A stretch of DNA of 64,000 nt from Escherichia coli (GTDB taxonomy: Bacteria > Pseudomonadota > Gammaproteobacteria > Enterobacterales > Enterobacteriaceae), in NCBI RefSeq assembly GCF_046105845.1, contig NZ_CP151004.1. The stretch is one strand, 5' to 3'. The position numbers and the translations under genes were made by a program. Below the pieces are notes generated by a model that saw only the letters and a list, made by a program, of their open reading frames with translations, searched no databases and was not told where the DNA came from. This document shows positions 6,018 through 23,502 of the stretch, piece after piece (positions within the stretch are counted from its first letter, which is position 1; every line of letters starts with the position of its first letter).

Positions 6018-7595
6018 ATGACGGAAAACATTCATAAGCATCGCATCCTCATTCTGGACTTCGGTTCTCAGTACACTCAACTGGTTGCGCGCCGCGTGCG
6101 TGAACTGGGTGTTTACTGCGAACTGTGGGCGTGGGATGTGACAGAAGCACAAATTCGTGACTTCAACCCAAGCGGCATTATTCTTTCCGGCGGCCCGGAA
6201 AGCACCACCGAAGAAAACAGCCCGCGTGCGCCGCAGTATGTTTTTGAAGCAGGCGTACCGGTATTCGGCGTTTGCTATGGCATGCAGACCATGGCAATGC
6301 AGTTGGGCGGTCACGTTGAAGCCTCTAACGAACGTGAATTTGGCTACGCGCAGGTTGAAGTCGTAAACGACAGCGCACTGGTTCGCGGTATTGAAGATGC
6401 TCTGACCGCAGACGGTAAACCTCTGCTCGATGTCTGGATGAGCCACGGCGATAAAGTTACCGCTATCCCGTCCGACTTCGTCACCGTAGCCAGCACCGAA
6501 AGCTGCCCGTTTGCCATTATGGCTAACGAAGAAAAACGCTTCTATGGCGTACAGTTCCACCCGGAAGTGACTCACACCCGTCAGGGTATGCGCATGCTGG
6601 AGCGTTTTGTGCGTGATATCTGCCAGTGTGAAGCCCTGTGGACGCCAGCGAAAATTATCGACGATGCTGTAGCTCGCATCCGCGAGCAGGTAGGCGACGA
6701 TAAAGTCATCCTCGGCCTCTCTGGTGGTGTGGATTCCTCCGTAACCGCAATGCTGCTGCACCGCGCTATCGGTAAAAACCTGACTTGCGTATTCGTCGAC
6801 AACGGCCTGCTGCGTCTCAACGAAGCAGAGCAGGTTCTGGATATGTTTGGCGATCACTTTGGTCTGAACATTGTTCACGTTCCGGCAGAAGATCGCTTCC
6901 TGTCAGCGTTGGCCGGCGAAAACGATCCGGAAGCAAAACGTAAAATCATCGGGCGCGTTTTCGTTGAAGTATTCGATGAAGAAGCACTGAAACTGGAAGA
7001 CGTGAAGTGGCTGGCGCAGGGCACTATCTACCCTGACGTTATTGAATCTGCCGCATCTGCAACCGGTAAAGCACACGTCATCAAATCTCACCACAACGTG
7101 GGCGGCCTGCCGAAAGAGATGAAGATGGGCCTGGTTGAACCGCTGAAAGAGCTGTTCAAAGACGAAGTGCGTAAGATTGGTCTGGAGCTGGGCCTGCCGT
7201 ACGACATGCTGTACCGTCACCCGTTCCCGGGACCAGGCCTCGGCGTTCGTGTACTGGGCGAAGTGAAGAAAGAGTACTGCGACCTGCTGCGCCGTGCTGA
7301 CGCCATCTTCATTGAAGAACTGCGTAAAGCGGACCTGTACGACAAAGTCAGCCAGGCGTTCACCGTCTTCCTGCCGGTACGTTCCGTTGGTGTAATGGGC
7401 GATGGTCGTAAGTATGACTGGGTTGTTTCTCTGCGTGCTGTCGAAACCATCGACTTTATGACCGCACACTGGGCGCATCTGCCGTACGATTTCCTCGGTC
7501 GCGTTTCCAACCGCATTATCAATGAAGTGAACGGTATTTCCCGCGTGGTGTATGACATCAGCGGCAAGCCGCCAGCTACCATTGAGTGGGAGTGA
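6018..7595 (+). CDS. guaA: GMP synthase (glutamine-hydrolysing) GuaA
   Basis: 525 aa; GATase domain then SGGVDSS PP-loop ATPase motif. Confidence 0.97.
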
Positions 7596-7634
7596 GGCTA
7601 TTATTTAAACTATTGTTTTATTTGATTTAGTGAG

Positions 7635-7675
7635 TGCCATTGATGATATTGACTGCATTATCAATGGCATTTTTC
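7635..7675 (+). terminator. Rho-independent terminator of guaA
   Basis: tgccattgat N15 atcaatggca 10-bp stem followed by ttttt. Confidence 0.7.
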
Positions 7676-7928
7676 ATGGTATAAGGCCGACGCTGAATCG
7701 AAGATATAGCAAATACCATGTGACCCTATCAGCAAATGCCATGGTATCGACAACCGGGGGCATTGCAGCGCTGTGCTGATGCCATCGATGCCCGCTTTTG
7801 GTCAGAACCGCTCTCTCGACCCAAGCCTCCAGATCGTTAAATATGCGCCAGAGGAGCACCTCGTGATCGAAATTGTGAACAAGACAGCCGCCGCTCGGAA
7901 TCGAAGTATCCATATGGGTGAATAAAGT

Positions 7929-7957
7929 TTGCGGAAAACACGCTGAGAAAATAGAAA
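7929..7957 (+). promoter_or_regulatory. Weak candidate sigma-70 promoter for the DUF262 gene pair (TTGCGG N17 TAGAAA)
   Basis: Hexamers with 17-bp spacer about 25 bp upstream of ATG 7981; RBS aaggga at 7968-7973. Confidence 0.25.
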
Positions 7958-7980
7958 AGCGTCAATGAAGGGACATAGCA

Positions 7981-9261
7981 ATGGCGATTAACGGAGAGGA
8001 CGGTGTTAGTGCAGTCACCGTGGATGAACTACTCAAGCAAGGCCTTCGGATACCGAACTATCAACGCCCATACAGTTGGGAAGTATCGACCGCTCTACAA
8101 CTGGTGGATGATCTTAGCGAAGCTCTTCGAGATACCGAAAGAAAAGATATTCCCTATGTTTTGGGTGCAATCATTCTTCACGATGATGGTGAGTATCTCA
8201 ATGTAGTCGACGGACAGCAACGTCTGCTGACTTTGCGAATGATTCTTGCGGCCTTAGATCCGATAAATCATCAGATTTCGGTGTCTGGTAACAGCGAAAC
8301 TCCTGTCTCCCTGGTTTGGATAGAGCTTCAAAGGCGCCTGTCGCAGTTGGAAGATAAAAAAGAATTTTTGGATTTTATCTGTCACAAATGTCAGTTGGTG
8401 CGTATTGTGACGGACGATATTGATGAGGCATTTCGTGTCTTTGATTCCCAGAACTATCGCGGCAAACCGCTTGCCCCTCATGACTTGCTCAAAGCACACC
8501 ACCTCCGCGAAATGCACGATGAGTCCGCTGCTATGAAAGTGGCTGTCGTTGAGGCTTGGGAAGCCGTAAATGATGAGGATCTGGACAGGCTTTTTTCTAC
8601 TTTTTTATACCGGATATCCAAGTGGTCACGAGGCGAAAGCTCGCTCGAATTTGCTATTCGGGACATCGGGATGTTTAAGGGAATTTCATCACGATCCCAC
8701 AGATCATTTTCGCCAAATCTGCGATATCACCTTGCAGCACAAGCCGCTATGCCACTTCTAAGTGCATGGGCGGTGTCCTCTACACATGATGCACGAAATG
8801 CCGGGCGCAGCCGCTTTCAGCTTGATGCCCCGATAATCGCTGGGCGCTCATTTTTCGAGATGGTGACATTCATGCTTGACGAATTGAAGATACTGGAAAA
8901 AGAGGTTATCGACAGAGGTTTCAAAAACTTTGGCCCATCTCAAAGTCGCTACCGCTACGTGTACGAATTGTTCATTGCCGCGCTGCTTTGCTATACAAAC
9001 AAGTTTGGCGATGAAGATGTGGATGAAGTGCGAAATAGATTATTCGCATGGGCATATGCCTTGCGGGTCGAGTTACTTCGTGTGCAATTTGTATCTGCTG
9101 ACAACCGAGCTCGAGGTAAAAACGATGCAAATAAATCGCCTTTTGTTTTGCTACGCAACGCGATGACTGGAAGTGTTGTCCGCAAACTTCCAATAGCAAG
9201 TCAGCCATACAACGATAACCACGAAAAGGAACTCGTTGCTTTTATCAAGGGGCTGCAATGA
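7981..9261 (+). CDS. DUF262 (ParB/Srx-like, DGQQR motif) protein, 426 aa, no recognisable nuclease domain
   Basis: Motifs IPNYQRPYSW, VDGQQRLLTL (8209-8223), FRVFDSQNYRGKPLAPHDLLK; stop overlaps next start (ATGA). Confidence 0.88.
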   Translation: MAINGEDGVSAVTVDELLKQGLRIPNYQRPYSWEVSTALQLVDDLSEALRDTERKDIPYVLGAIILHDDGEYLNVVDGQQRLLTLRMILAALDPINHQISVSGNSETPVSLVWIELQRRLSQLEDKKEFLDFICHKCQLVRIVTDDIDEAFRVFDSQNYRGKPLAPHDLLKAHHLREMHDESAAMKVAVVEAWEAVNDEDLDRLFSTFLYRISKWSRGESSLEFAIRDIGMFKGISSRSHRSFSPNLRYHLAAQAAMPLLSAWAVSSTHDARNAGRSRFQLDAPIIAGRSFFEMVTFMLDELKILEKEVIDRGFKNFGPSQSRYRYVYELFIAALLCYTNKFGDEDVDEVRNRLFAWAYALRVELLRVQFVSADNRARGKNDANKSPFVLLRNAMTGSVVRKLPIASQPYNDNHEKELVAFIKGLQ

Positions 9262-11210
9262 GCAAGAAGGAGTTGAGACCCGAACTGATAACAGTAGGCA
9301 AGCTATTCACGGGCTATTATCTGATTCCTATTTATCAACGGAACTATGCTTGGCGGGCCGAACAGATTGAGCAACTTATCAGCGATATTCAAGGCTCGGT
9401 GGTTGGGGGCCAGGACGACTATTTTCTTGGGAACCTTGTTGTAATCAAGCGGGGTAGAGAGGACGAGTTCGAGGTCATAGATGGACAACAACGACTTACA
9501 ACCCTCTATCTGCTTCTGACCTTCCTGGAGCAAGACGGTGAGGGTGGGAAGCTGTCGATTGGCCATGCAGGCCACTTGCAATATGAGTCGCGCGCACGGG
9601 CAACGGAAGCCCTGCGGCGAGTAGCACAGGAGGCGGCTAAGGGGCACGTCCGACCGCAGGGCTCCACGAGTAATGCAGATGCTGGCATCCATGAAGGCTA
9701 CAGCATCATCAATCAGTTCTTCAAACAAAATGAAACCCTTAATCGCTCACGCGAAAAATTCTCCGATTTCTTGCTAAAGAAGGTTACTGTCGTCCGTGCC
9801 TCGCTGCCACCCAATACCGACCTCAATCGCTACTTCGAGATCATGAACACTCGTGGGCAGCAACTCAAGCAGGTTGATATTGTTAAGGCTCGCCTGATGA
9901 GCAAGCTGCCCAATCAATATGAACGCGAATGCTTCGCGTGGGTTTGGGATGCCTGTGCTGACATGGATTCTTATGTCCAGATGTCTCTGACCCGTGGTGA
10001 CACCAGTTTACGAAACAAAGTATTTGGCGATGAATGGTCCTGGCTGGAGGTGACCAGCTTCGCGTCGCTAATGGAAAGTCGTCCGCAATCCGACATCAGT
10101 TCATTAAGGCAATCCTCCGAAGGGGTATCGTTGTCCTTGGATGAGGCGTTGTCAAAATACGCTAAAGAGATCGAGTCAAATTCCACTGAAGACGAGGGCA
10201 ACGAGCGGTTTCGTTCGACTATTGAGTTTCCGGCCTTTCTGCTACACGTTCTAAGAATTATGAAAGGCGATGAGGTCGAAGACGAAGGCCAGCTTGACGA
10301 CAAGCGCCTCATCAAGTCATTTGACGACGCCGTAAATAATGTACCCGATGCTAAAGCCGATTGGGTGCGTAGCTTTGCATTTATGCTTCTTAAGTGCCGT
10401 AACCTCTTCGATGGCTTCATCTTGAAGCGTCAATTCACGGCGAACATCGGTGACGATGGCGATTGGTCTCTCCAGCGATTGAAGAAAGGCGGTGCGGACA
10501 AGAAGCCAGCCCCGACGTACATCCATGTTTTCTCGGCCAGCAATGGAAACTTGGAGGAGGACAGCGGTGCTGACCCACATACCCGAGATGTATTGTTGCT
10601 TCAGTCCATGCTTCGGATTACCTACACTTCTCCGCGAACGATGCACTGGATTACCAAAGTTCTTCGCTGGCTATCCGTTAAAGCCCCTCAAGACGCGAAA
10701 CATGCGGATCTTGCCGATTTGTTGAAGGGGTATGCCCGCAGCAAGGTTAAAGAGACATTCCCCTTTGAGGAAGATCAGCAACCACAAGGGTTTGGTATCA
10801 GCCGTATCGTCTTTTCATACCTCGACTATCTTCTGTTGAGTGATTCCTCAAAACGAGATTTCAAATTTCAGTTCAGAACTTCCATTGAGCACTTTTATCC
10901 ACAGCATCCGGACAAAGAACAGTCGGGCGCGGCTGTTTCAGGTTCTAGCCTTAACCTGCTTGGCAACCTCGCGCTCGTAAGCGTCAGCGCGAACTCAAAA
11001 TTCAGCAATAGCCTTCCCAGAGCGAAGGCCGAAAACTTCAAGGATACGATTGAACTTCAAAGTCCCAAGCTCAAGAGAATGGCGGAAATCGCTCGAAATA
11101 CAAGCTGGGACGATCAGCAGATAACAGCACATCATGAAGAGATGGTGACATTGCTTCGTGATGATGTAAGTCTGGTGGAGGCAAGCGGAAGATCCTACCC
11201 GGGGCGTTGA
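9258..11210 (+). CDS. GmrSD-like protein: N-terminal DUF262 plus C-terminal DUF1524 His-Me-finger nuclease motif, 650 aa
   Basis: IPIYQRNYAW, IDGQQRLTTL (9480-9494), YFEIMNTRGQQLKQVD; C-terminal SIEHFYPQHP (10887-10904) and GNLALVSVSANSKFSN. Confidence 0.88.
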   Translation: MSKKELRPELITVGKLFTGYYLIPIYQRNYAWRAEQIEQLISDIQGSVVGGQDDYFLGNLVVIKRGREDEFEVIDGQQRLTTLYLLLTFLEQDGEGGKLSIGHAGHLQYESRARATEALRRVAQEAAKGHVRPQGSTSNADAGIHEGYSIINQFFKQNETLNRSREKFSDFLLKKVTVVRASLPPNTDLNRYFEIMNTRGQQLKQVDIVKARLMSKLPNQYERECFAWVWDACADMDSYVQMSLTRGDTSLRNKVFGDEWSWLEVTSFASLMESRPQSDISSLRQSSEGVSLSLDEALSKYAKEIESNSTEDEGNERFRSTIEFPAFLLHVLRIMKGDEVEDEGQLDDKRLIKSFDDAVNNVPDAKADWVRSFAFMLLKCRNLFDGFILKRQFTANIGDDGDWSLQRLKKGGADKKPAPTYIHVFSASNGNLEEDSGADPHTRDVLLLQSMLRITYTSPRTMHWITKVLRWLSVKAPQDAKHADLADLLKGYARSKVKETFPFEEDQQPQGFGISRIVFSYLDYLLLSDSSKRDFKFQFRTSIEHFYPQHPDKEQSGAAVSGSSLNLLGNLALVSVSANSKFSNSLPRAKAENFKDTIELQSPKLKRMAEIARNTSWDDQQITAHHEEMVTLLRDDVSLVEASGRSYPGR

Positions 11211-11443
11211 CTTCTTTGAATAACCGCTTTTGGACGAAAGTCCCTTGTGGAGTGCAAGTTGTCAGTCTAAAAGCGTTTTGCGTCAGGCGACACGATCAGT
11301 ACAGCTCCCAGGTTTTCTTACCATGGTATTTTGTGTGGTATCGACATGCAAATATAATGCTATTCTATTGATTTTACAGTGTTTTAAGGCGGCATTAATC
11401 ATCGAGTGGGAATGATTTGACCCTGCACTATGAATGAACAAAA

Positions 11444-11469
11444 CCCTCTGTTACTACAGAGGGTTTTTT
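11444..11469 (+). terminator. Rho-independent terminator between the convergent DUF262 operon and yfgI
   Basis: ccctctg ttacta cagaggg followed by tttttt; A-run on the other side makes it partly bidirectional. Confidence 0.65.
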
Positions 11470-11507
11470 ATCTTCAAGAATTATAGGCTTGAAGTTACTT
11501 ACATCGA

Positions 11508-12047
11508 TTAATTAAACCAGCTGTCCGATTTGTTCTCTTCTGCTTTGCCCACGCTTTTCATCAGATCGCGACCGCCTTCAGTCATATTTCTGTTTGCGTC
11601 AGCTTCAGATTGCACCACATCGGTTTGCGCAGCTTTGTGCTTCAGTTCCTGATCGATAAATTCGTTTTCTCGCTTAACGCGGGCTTCTTCTTTCGCCAGC
11701 GCCAGTTTTTGTTTCTGAATCTCTAAGCTGCGTAGCTCATCTTCATAACTTTGATCGCGTTTTTTGTCCGCAGTGGCTTCGGCATCCAGTTTATCCTGAC
11801 GAGCTTTCTTATTTGCCGCTGCCGTTGCCGCTCTTTTGTTAGCGGCGGCCTGGGCGTTTGCGCGACGTTGCTTCTCTTGCTGGATTTCCCTGTTGCGCTC
11901 CGCGACCCATTCGTCATGCTGCCTTTGCTCTTCATTTTTACCTTGCTGTTCCGCTTCTGCGACAGCAGAGAGTTGATCCTGCAATGATGAGGCGATAGCC
12001 GGATAGCTTAAGGAGGCTAAGATGGCGCAAAGAAAAACTTTCTTCAT
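11508..12047 (-). CDS. yfgI: Periplasmic coiled-coil protein YfgI
   Basis: 179 aa, signal peptide MKKVFLCAILASLSYPAIA, charged repeats; K-12 synteny. Confidence 0.88.
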   Translation of the reverse strand: MKKVFLCAILASLSYPAIASSLQDQLSAVAEAEQQGKNEEQRQHDEWVAERNREIQQEKQRRANAQAAANKRAATAAANKKARQDKLDAEATADKKRDQSYEDELRSLEIQKQKLALAKEEARVKRENEFIDQELKHKAAQTDVVQSEADANRNMTEGGRDLMKSVGKAEENKSDSWFN

Positions 12048-22142: not shown

Positions 22143-22172
22143 AAAGCCGACTTTAAGAGTCGGCTTTTTTTT
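22143..22172 (+). terminator. Rho-independent terminator/attenuator after upp
   Basis: aaagccgac tttaaga gtcggcttt followed by T-run. Confidence 0.6.
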
Positions 22173-22212
22173 GAGTAAAGCGCCTATAACACATAATACA
22201 GAGGATAATACT

Positions 22213-23502
22213 ATGACGCGCCGTGCTATCGGGGTGAGTGAAAGACCGCCACTTTTACAGACAATCCCGCTTAGTTTGCAACATTTGTTCGCCATGTTTG
22301 GTGCAACCGTCCTGGTGCCCGTCTTATTTCATATTAACCCGGCGACTGTACTGTTATTTAACGGTATAGGAACACTGCTGTATCTCTTCATCTGTAAAGG
22401 GAAAATTCCGGCTTATCTTGGTTCCAGCTTTGCCTTTATTTCACCGGTATTGTTACTGTTGCCGTTGGGGTATGAAGTCGCGCTGGGCGGCTTTATTATG
22501 TGCGGCGTGCTGTTCTGCCTGGTTTCTTTTATCGTGAAGAAAGCGGGGACCGGCTGGCTGGACGTGCTGTTTCCACCTGCGGCAATGGGCGCAATCGTTG
22601 CCGTCATCGGTCTGGAGCTGGCGGGCGTAGCTGCCGGTATGGCAGGTTTACTCCCGGCTGAAGGGCAAACTCCAGACTCCAAAACCATCATCATCTCCAT
22701 TACCACGCTGGCGGTTACGGTTTTAGGTTCCGTGCTGTTTCGTGGTTTCCTGGCAATTATCCCGATTTTAATTGGCGTGCTGGTGGGCTACGCGCTCTCT
22801 TTCGCAATGGGAATTGTCGATACCACGCCGATTATTAATGCTCACTGGTTTGCGCTGCCAACTCTCTATACGCCGCGCTTCGAGTGGTTTGCCATTCTGA
22901 CTATTCTGCCAGCGGCGTTAGTGGTTATTGCCGAACACGTAGGGCACCTGGTGGTAACGGCTAATATCGTCAAAAAAGATCTGCTGCGCGATCCTGGTCT
23001 GCACCGTTCGATGTTTGCTAACGGCTTGTCGACCGTGATCTCCGGCTTCTTTGGCTCCACGCCAAATACCACCTACGGGGAAAACATTGGCGTGATGGCG
23101 ATCACCCGTGTTTACAGTACCTGGGTTATCGGCGGGGCAGCGATTTTCGCTATCCTGCTTTCCTGCGTCGGTAAACTGGCTGCTGCTATCCAGATGATCC
23201 CATTGCCGGTGATGGGCGGCGTTTCGCTGCTGCTTTATGGTGTCATCGGTGCTTCCGGTATTCGTGTTTTGATCGAATCGAAAGTGGATTACAACAAAGC
23301 ACAGAACCTGATCCTGACTTCCGTGATTTTGATCATCGGTGTCAGCGGCGCGAAGGTAAACATCGGCGCGGCGGAGCTGAAAGGTATGGCGCTGGCGACC
23401 ATCGTCGGTATCGGCTTAAGTTTGATCTTCAAACTGATTAGTGTGCTGCGCCCTGAAGAAGTGGTGCTGGACGCAGAAGACGCGGATATAACAGACAAAT
23501 AA
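22213..23502 (+). CDS. uraA: Uracil permease UraA
   Basis: 429 aa from [24 protein letters not shown]; NCS2 family. Confidence 0.95.

Follow-up and report, generated by a model that had tools for sequence, protein, structure and literature searches.

Tyrosine integrases of the lambda type are heterobivalent. Their N-terminal Arm-DNA-binding domain recognises arm sites, and their catalytic domain acts on the core. Together with bending proteins, the integrase assembles into an intasome for integration and excision. The heterobivalent nature of lambda Int and its arm-binding model are stated in PMC9791396. GIsul2 and GIsul2-like elements, a family of integrative mobilizable elements (IMEs), have been described at the 3' end of guaA (Harmer et al. 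2017, as cited in PMC9376610). The Int-dependent core of GIsul2 at this gene end, GAGTGGGA, has experimental support (PMC9376610). The phages epsilon15, phiV10 and ZX5 have attgagtgggaatgatt as attP/attB core (PMC9782041). Cis-mobilizable elements (CIMEs), which retain attL and attR, were defined in ICE systems of Streptococcus (PMC5704250).

The window analysed here is a stretch of 64,000 nucleotides from Escherichia coli. It contains a 3.8-kb insertion (7592-11411), here called the islet, between guaA and yfgI (Table 1). This location had been proposed by a first-pass annotation of the DNA and was borne out by comparison with 5,425 genomes of E. coli. The empty site of K-12 reads guaA...ATTGAGTGGGAATGA followed by TTTGACCCTGCAC; in the window, this sequence is split around the insert, with GAGTGGGA on each side. 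Both junctions carry a copy of the guaA 3' end, duplicated with the exact 8-bp core GAGTGGGA. The left core lies within an imperfect 15-bp repeat, ATTGAGTGGGAGTGA (7581-7595), and the right core within its imperfect counterpart ATCGAGTGGGAATGA (11401-11415), right after which the K-12 sequence restarts. The last guaA bases past the core, GTGA (7592-7595), originate from the inserted element; the reading frame and a stop codon are preserved. The native guaA terminator hairpin was displaced by the insertion and is now downstream of the island. In elements with other cargo at the guaA site, the yfgI-side DNA is joined at the identical core.

Table 1. Features of the guaA-yfgI locus in the window, with coordinates, strand and the evidence for each.
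Feature	Position	Strand	Evidence
guaA (GMP synthase), target gene	6018..7595	+	ORF; RefSeq annotation of identical loci; empty-site alignment
attL core GAGTGGGA, true left junction	7584..7591	+	Empty-site alignment; published core
Left-arm (P-arm) doublet: ATGGCAT 7664-7670, 5 bp, ATGGTAT 7676-7682	7664..7682	+	Five-element alignment
Inverted left-arm site, ATACCAT on the plus strand, within ATACCATG	7713..7719	-	TACCATG block invariant in five-element alignment
Left-arm site ATGGTAT 7741-7747 (left copies of CCATGGTAT and TGGTATCGACA)	7739..7752	+	Motif scan; alignment
Cargo gene 1: GmrSD_N (DUF262) + DUF7834 protein, 426 aa	7981..9261	+	ORF; domain matches
Cargo gene 2: GmrSD-like protein, GmrSD_N + GmrSD_C, 650 aa	9258..11210	+	ORF; domain matches
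Right-arm (P'-arm) doublet: ATGGTAT 11323-11329, GTGGTAT 11335-11341	11321..11346	+	Right copies of CCATGGTAT and TGGTATCGACA
attR core GAGTGGGA, true right junction	11404..11411	+	Empty-site alignment
Native guaA terminator hairpin	11440..11467	+	Terminator scan; directly after guaA in K-12
yfgI, right flanking gene	11508..12047	-	ORF; RefSeq annotation of identical loci

Two short repeats near the insertion ends had drawn attention to the locus. The 11-mer TGGTATCGACA was found exactly as reported at 7742-7752 and 11336-11346, both on the plus strand, and the 9-mer CCATGGTAT at 7739-7747 and 11321-11329. Direct repeats close to both ends of an insertion may suggest a duplicated target site or an ancestral guaA-yfgI spacer split by the insertion, and both had been proposed. 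The repeats are set back from the junctions into the insert, by 150 bp on the left and by 57-68 bp on the right; they do not abut the insert ends as those of a transposon-style target-site duplication do. Neither copy is present in the empty site of K-12 C600, which is the outcome that the annotation itself had set against a spacer origin. Since the repeats are inside the insertion and the empty site lacks them, target duplication and old spacer both fail as origins. The sequence that is duplicated is GAGTGGGA, and the repeats move with the islet when it is found on plasmids. These two origins can practically be dismissed. The further suggestion of a recombination site holds in part: the repeats probably belong to a site-specific recombination apparatus, as accessory arm-type sites and not as the crossover site.

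The 11-mer and the 9-mer are not independent of each other. On the left side, they merge into the single 14-mer CCATGGTATCGACA; on the right side, CCATGGTATCGACA is split by 12 bp, which yields two tandem (A/G)TGGTAT copies. Shuffling of the flanks (7596-7980 and 11211-11507) produced an exact match of at least 11 bases on either strand in 5.2% of the pairs (n = 2000). Direct matches account for about half of this, close to the 0.02 estimated beforehand. This frequency gives some room to a meaningless chance repeat. A third copy of TGGTATCGACA, missed in the first reading, is located on the minus strand at 22815-22825 within an unrelated 443-aa ORF (22171-23502) and looks like chance. A dot-plot style comparison of flank against flank also returned a 10-mer, CCGCTTTTGG, at 7792 and 11224. 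Since it is not conserved in the majority islet variant, it was rejected as a chance match. Coincidence is nevertheless a very improbable explanation of the 11-mer match: the TGGTAT part belongs to a motif that is enriched ~80-fold in the arms, and the position of this motif is kept across independent elements. Four of the ten ATGGTAT matches in the 64-kb window fall within 591 bp, the two non-coding ends of the insertion, where ~0.05 are expected. The enrichment of this core motif is a stronger statistic than the 11-mer match. Five further bases, CGACA, extend the match to an 11-mer and are outside the 7-bp consensus; their agreement may be chance or element-specific.

The 7-bp motif with the consensus ATGGTAT is present four times in the left arm (two direct copies, one inverted and one direct) and twice in the right arm. 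Measured from the left core, the sites start at +73, +85, +122 (inverted) and +150; measured from the right core, at -81 and -69. The two sites of the left doublet are 12 bp apart from start to start. The second right-arm site is GTGGTAT in this strain and ATGGTAT in the majority variant, which has a perfect ATGGTAT-5 bp-ATGGTAT. As expected for arm sites, the motif is distinct from the core and repeated in both arms. In the arms of eight att sets, a degenerate version of the motif was enriched (shuffle fraction at most 0.007), with four to six copies where 0.4-0.7 are expected. A de novo k-mer ranking identified GGTAT as the top 5-mer common to both arms in six of six elements, with a permissive shuffle null. 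Promoter and terminator scans of both arms gave chance-level results except for the native guaA terminator.

The left arms of the islet, GIsul2 (pAB3), two GIsul2-like elements (IME1 and IME2) and one Klebsiella plasmid element were aligned. Four blocks are kept in the order ATGG(C/A)AT, 5 bp, (A/C)TGGTA(T/C), ~29 bp, TACCATG, ~21 bp and ATGGT(A/G)T, and the spacers between them have diverged. The left 11-mer coincides with the fourth block. Its motif at 7741 is 21 bp past the inverted site, as in IME2, where the homologous site is CATGGTATCGA. The right-arm pair is located at exactly -81/-69 in the islet and in IME1; IME2 has its first site at -80 and a degenerate second site. A tandem pair at exactly -81/-69 is also present in epsilon15, Klebsiella phage BUCT711, Enterobacter phage Tyrion and one E. 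coli prophage. A scan of viral contigs with the prophage integrase returned only relatives with 98-100% identity, mostly with the integrase at a contig end, and thus added no diversity; tblastn against phage and plasmid records took its place.

Across the element groups, the sequence around the right-arm pair cannot be aligned, and the integrases of IMEs and phages share only 53% identity. Hence, position is kept while the intervening sequence diverges, both for the right-arm pair and for the left-arm blocks of the five elements, which is the behaviour of arm sites. Both repeats have positional homologues in other elements at the guaA locus. They were also retained in all islet variants examined, with arms diverged up to ~9%; the concern that they might lie in unrelated contexts elsewhere did not materialise. 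The GenBank record of epsilon15 annotates a 10-mer, GTGACGGTAT, in both arms as integrase-binding, an annotation that is a prediction. It is the phage analogue of the repeats noticed here.

From sequence comparison, the probability is roughly 80% that the repeats are integrase sites of the arm type, located in attL and attR of an island that is CIME-like and decayed. Strand exchange would occur at the guaA 3' end in the 8-bp core, which is duplicated at both junctions. The ATGGTAT copies would be arm-type sites for the N-terminal domain of the integrase, with the catalytic domain on the core. Physical binding of an integrase to ATGGTAT is predicted from the motif and the domain architecture: the Pfam domain Arm-DNA-bind_3 (PF13356) was detected in the integrases of IME1 and the prophage with E values of ~1e-19. 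A motif set that truly belongs to the att arms may also be bound by a directionality factor of the AlpA/Xis type or by a host factor. An AlpA-family gene follows int in GIsul2 and IME1, and directionality factors also bind tandem direct repeats. A literature search yielded no binding or footprinting results for the GIsul2/epsilon15 integrase family of the guaA site, and the word 'arm' is absent from the GIsul2 mobility paper (PMC9376610). Another binder is still unlikely. The motif occurs in both arms and in both orientations, and all integrases examined have an arm-binding domain that needs such sites. The position relative to the core is kept from IMEs to phages, which matches the lambda Int arm-binding model as given in PMC9791396.

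No integrase gene is present in the islet; the two cores enclose only two GmrSD-type genes, which overlap by 4 bp. Two small ORFs in the left arm (7677-7913, minus strand; 7630-7776, plus strand) had no match in PADLOC or NCBIfam and thus give no sign of an integrase remnant. The genes alpA, repA/repC and trbJ/trbL are present in IME1 and IME2 and absent from the islet. Like the GIsul2 family, the islet is inserted at the guaA 3' end and has GAGTGGGA at either junction; it lacks the GIsul2-type tyrosine integrase next to attL. The integrase of IME2 and that of GIsul2 (pAB3) share 88.6% identity. The islet would have kept the attL and attR arms and lost the integrase gene, which would make it a decayed, CIME-like unit. 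Any movement would require the integrase of a related element. According to the domain matches, the islet is likely a small defence island with a GmrSD-type anti-phage cassette. A literature search for the guaA locus as a defence hotspot found nothing relevant.

Solo islets were present in about 80 of 5,426 E. coli genomes, always on the chromosome at guaA. This distribution, together with the missing integrase, fits the view that the arm sites are pure fossils, kept by descent in a fixed islet that spreads only vertically or via homologous recombination in the guaA and yfgI flanks. Sequence variation also fits. One left-arm site is degenerate in the majority variant, with ATGGTAT changed to ATGGTTT. 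Among the islet variants, the sites had one variable column in 26 against ~3 expected; with few substitutions, there was no measurable excess of purifying selection on the sites over neighbouring non-coding DNA.

The plasmid-borne islets argue against pure fossils. The integrase-less islet was found on at least 454 plasmids, and 2,303 of the 2,590 matching records were from Klebsiella. The plasmid copies are bounded exactly by GAGTGGG(A), and their flanks are unrelated to guaA. One plasmid carries a truncated GIsul2-type integrase gene and further cargo ~6 kb upstream of the islet. A clean empty site for the plasmid copies was not found; an islet-free relative shares the right flank only, so the plasmid attB could not be reconstructed. 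On chromosomes, tandem arrays of the type guaA-IME-islet-yfgI (for example in strain CFSAN051542) place the islet beside intact GIsul2-like elements, whose integrase could act on it. Tandem IME-islet arrays occur on plasmids as well. Sites that are mere fossils are a serious possibility, albeit one that we doubt. The tandem IME-islet arrays and the core-bounded plasmid copies are consistent with a CIME-type joint excision or transfer. As integrase arm sites, the ATGGTAT copies may still be used in this strain.

A tentative proposal is that the GmrSD islet is an actively hitchhiking defence cassette, excised and re-integrated via its retained ATGGTAT arm sites by GIsul2-type integrases from a tandem partner or from an element elsewhere in the cell. 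Hitchhiking would account for an islet that is found both on hundreds of plasmids of Klebsiella and, at guaA, in about 80 chromosomes of E. coli. The single-base difference between TGGTA in IMEs and CGGTA in phages, which have the core in common, would then decide which integrase mobilises which element. The anatomy of the insertion is corrected by assigning the crossover to the published GAGTGGGA core and the 11-mer to the accessory parts of the attachment site. From the comparison, candidate arm-type sites of the GIsul2/epsilon15 integrase family can be mapped in concrete, testable form. Since GIsul2-type integrases spread sul2 and other resistance genes, it is useful to know the DNA that they need. 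On Klebsiella plasmids, a small GmrSD-type cassette with complete att arms and no integrase is widespread; this fits accretion-mobilization as the route that keeps decayed elements moving. The arm-site feature itself is of a known kind and represents no new kind of biology.

Among the closest described systems is GIsul2. It shares with the islet the guaA 3'-end target and the 8-bp core at both junctions, and its left-arm layout of ATGGTAT-type sites matches that of the islet site for site. IME1 and IME2 add the right-arm doublet at the core distance of the islet, with IME2 one base off and its second site degenerate. Unlike the GIsul2 family, the islet lacks integrase, alpA, repAC and trb/tra genes. 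It also lacks the int-proximal arm site and the ~62-bp terminator segment that follows the core. Its cargo of two GmrSD-type genes also differs from GIsul2. The attP of Uetakevirus phages of the epsilon15/phiV10 type shares attB and core (attgagtgggaatgatt) with the islet and has the tandem pair at -81/-69; its left arm contains a direct pair followed by an inverted site. Its motif is ACGGTAT (CGGTA) in place of ATGGTAT (TGGTA), and the phages are complete, whereas the islet is not. The attP of lambda (P1, P2, P'1-P'3) has short non-core repeats in both arms, within ~150-280 bp of the crossover, including tandem copies about one helical turn apart, as in the islet. A separate N-terminal arm-binding domain is common to lambda-type integrases and the integrases examined from guaA-site elements. 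The guaA family differs from lambda in motif sequence and integrase clade (P4-like, Arm-DNA-bind_3), and its arm binding is predicted. Like the CIMEs of Streptococcus (PMC5704250), the islet has retained attL and attR, with both cores and both arm motif sets; it is also found next to intact, related IMEs in tandem arrays at one att site.

The two direct repeats reported in the first-pass annotation near the ends of the insert are present. The 11-mer TGGTATCGACA is exact at 7742-7752 and 11336-11346, and the 9-mer CCATGGTAT occurs at 7739-7747 and 11321-11329. When both flanks were shuffled (n = 2000), 5.2% of cases contained an exact match of ≥11 bases on either strand; the 11-mer alone is therefore only mildly unusual. 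A third exact copy of TGGTATCGACA on the minus strand (22815-22825), within a 443-aa ORF (22171-23502), is best read as a chance occurrence unconnected with the islet, the insert between guaA and yfgI. Both repeats form a single feature. Its left copy reads CCATGGTATCGACA; in the right copy this string is divided by 12 bp into two tandem (A/G)TGGTAT units. A further 10-mer common to the flanks, CCGCTTTTGG (7792-7801 and 11224-11233), is probably due to chance, since the majority islet variant does not keep it.

The query matched in 5,425 of 5,426 complete E. coli genomes, mostly with the flanks only. The complete 3.8-kb insert is present in 76 of them; its annotation there, between guaA and yfgI, is a pair of DUF262 proteins. 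In the empty site of K-12 C600, the guaA stop is directly followed by the spacer (...ACCATTGAGTGGGAATGA then TTTGACCCTGCAC). In the window, ...ACCATTGAGTGGGAGTGA runs into GGCTATT at the left junction, and ...AATCATCGAGTGGGAATGA runs into TTTGACCCTGCAC at the right. The duplicated sequence is therefore the guaA end, with an exact 8-bp core, GAGTGGGA, on either side. The repeats lie inside the insert, 150 bp from the left junction and 57-68 bp from the right, and neither occurs in the K-12 C600 empty site. By the refuting condition that the annotation itself had set, this excludes the proposed target duplication as well as the proposed remnant of an ancestral guaA-yfgI spacer. In strain F8111-1SC3 (L008 8300-8420), the sequence past the right core is unlike that of K-12 (GAGTGGGAATAA, then another spacer), which suggests a variant guaA-yfgI spacer or an extra small insertion.

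Positions of genes, att cores and candidate arm sites of the islet in the window
Feature	Position	Basis
attL core, exact 8 bp GAGTGGGA	7584-7591	junction comparison with K-12 C600
Left-arm site ATGGCAT	7664-7670	
Left-arm site ATGGTAT	7676-7682	
Left-arm site, inverted, ATACCAT	7713-7719	
Left-arm site ATGGTAT	7741-7747	
Gene 1, GmrSD_N + DUF7834	7981-9261	
Gene 2, GmrSD_N + GmrSD_C	9258-11210	
Right-arm site ATGGTAT	11323-11329	
Right-arm site GTGGTAT	11335-11341	
attR core, exact 8 bp GAGTGGGA	11404-11411	junction comparison with K-12 C600

Other E. coli genomes carry at this position a GIsul2-like integrative mobilizable element (IME1, with integrase, alpA, repA and trbJ/L) or a Uetakevirus prophage; for both, the junction facing yfgI lies at the same core. 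This agrees with the literature. GIsul2 inserts into the guaA 3′ end at GAGTGGGA, and its integrase performs excision and integration via the att core sites (PMC9376610). In epsilon15, phiV10 and ZX5, attP and attB have attgagtgggaatgatt as their core (PMC9782041). Integrases of this guaA-targeting GIsul2/epsilon15 family, examined in IME1 and the prophage, have the Pfam domain Arm-DNA-bind_3; that of IME2, a second GIsul2-like element, is 88.6% identical to the GIsul2 integrase (pAB3). Strain Z1323CEC0007 (NZ_CP148463.1; L003, L006) has the Uetakevirus prophage twice in tandem at guaA, with a complete attP between the copies.

The TGGTAT of the repeats belongs to a 7-bp motif, ATGGTAT, which occurs ten times in the 64-kb window; four of these copies fall within the 591 bp of non-coding insert ends, where about 0.05 are expected. 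Eight att sets were compared: two islet variants, IME1, IME2, epsilon15, Klebsiella phage BUCT711, Enterobacter phage Tyrion and one E. coli prophage. The degenerate motif is enriched in the arms of all eight (4-6 copies versus 0.4-0.7 expected). Seven have the right-arm pair at exactly -81/-69 from the core; in IME2, it is shifted by one base and the second site is degenerate. The motif excepted, right arms are unalignable between element groups. The left arms of the islet, GIsul2 (pAB3), IME1, IME2 and one Klebsiella plasmid element align in four kept blocks with diverged spacers: ATGG(C/A)AT-5 bp-(A/C)TGGTA(T/C)-~29 bp-TACCATG-~21 bp-ATGGT(A/G)T. The fourth block is the left 11-mer, and its IME2 counterpart reads CATGGTATCGA. 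Islet sites +85, +122 and +150 correspond to IME2 sites +146, +184 and +212 minus ~62 bp, an offset that matches the segment with a terminator hairpin in the IMEs; the islet lacks it. When 5-mers shared by the two arms were ranked de novo, GGTAT, found in all 6 elements tested, came first, under a permissive shuffle null. In the majority variant of the islet, one of the left-arm sites is degenerate, and no excess conservation of the motif sites was measurable among islet variants.

Positions and homology suggest that the motif copies are arm-type sites, likely bound by the integrase. In lambda-type heterobivalent integrases (PMC9791396, PMC4880445), the N-terminal domain binds arm sites and the catalytic domain the core, and a bridged, bent integrase-DNA complex carries out integration and excision. 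ATGGTAT-type sites would likewise be bound by the N-terminal domain and the core by the catalytic domain. The main alternative is that a different protein, for example an AlpA-type directionality factor, binds the motif instead of the integrase.

The islet has only two genes between its cores, both with PADLOC matches to HEC-06, Orf5 and SspE-type models. No integrase or transfer genes were found between the cores, and small ORFs in the arms had no family matches. The islet therefore fits a cis-mobilizable element (CIME) as defined in PMC5704250: attL and attR are kept, whereas genes for integration and transfer have been lost. The terminator hairpin directly past the core in IMEs and phages is absent from the islet (7596-7660), and the native guaA terminator (11440-11467) is now downstream of it. 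Transcription of guaA may therefore read through into the GmrSD genes.

Some E. coli genomes contain guaA-IME-islet-yfgI arrays with an intact GIsul2-type IME integrase. At least 454 plasmids, most of them Klebsiella plasmids, also carry the integrase-less GmrSD islet, with exact limits (GAGTGGGA left, GAGTGGG right) and flanks unrelated to guaA. Adjoining it on the left, at -80/-68, is a further pair of right-arm type, ATGGCAT-5 bp-ATGGCAT. In plasmid L098, a truncated integrase gene of GIsul2 type (residues 1-226; 9001-9678) and further cargo lie some 6 kb upstream of the islet, behind a core of their own; type I restriction-modification genes follow the integrase gene. L095, L096 and L098 are Klebsiella-type IncFIB/FII plasmids; in other plasmids, IS1 cut the region upstream of the islet further. 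A search for a clean empty plasmid site for the islet found none. Arrays, plasmid copies, neighbouring arm pair and truncated integrase are consistent with accretion and co-mobilization.

Arms of the two groups differ by one base of the motif: TGGTA (TGGTA/TGGCA) in IMEs, GIsul2 and the islet versus CGGTA in phages. This difference coexists with the common GAGTGGGA core and with integrase subfamilies, IME and phage, that are only 53% identical. It could decide which integrase acts on which element. The right arms of epsilon15 (L091 383-405) and the E. coli Uetakevirus prophage (L006 reverse complement) also have ATGGCATTTTTCATGGTAC at -112/-100 from the core, in addition to the phages' own ACGGTAT pair. 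It is nearly identical to the left-arm doublet of the islet (7664-7682) and is missing from BUCT711 and Tyrion. It may be a trace of att-arm recombination between phages and IMEs or a second site class.

Target, core and integrase family are already known, as are arm-type sites and CIMEs as concepts. What is added is that sequence comparison identifies the islet as a putative CIME-like unit of the GIsul2 family, together with a comparative map of the candidate arm sites that GIsul2-type elements and epsilon15-type phages have in common. A direct analogue of the ATGGTAT sites is found in epsilon15, for which the GenBank record already labels GTGACGGTAT in both arms as integrase-binding.
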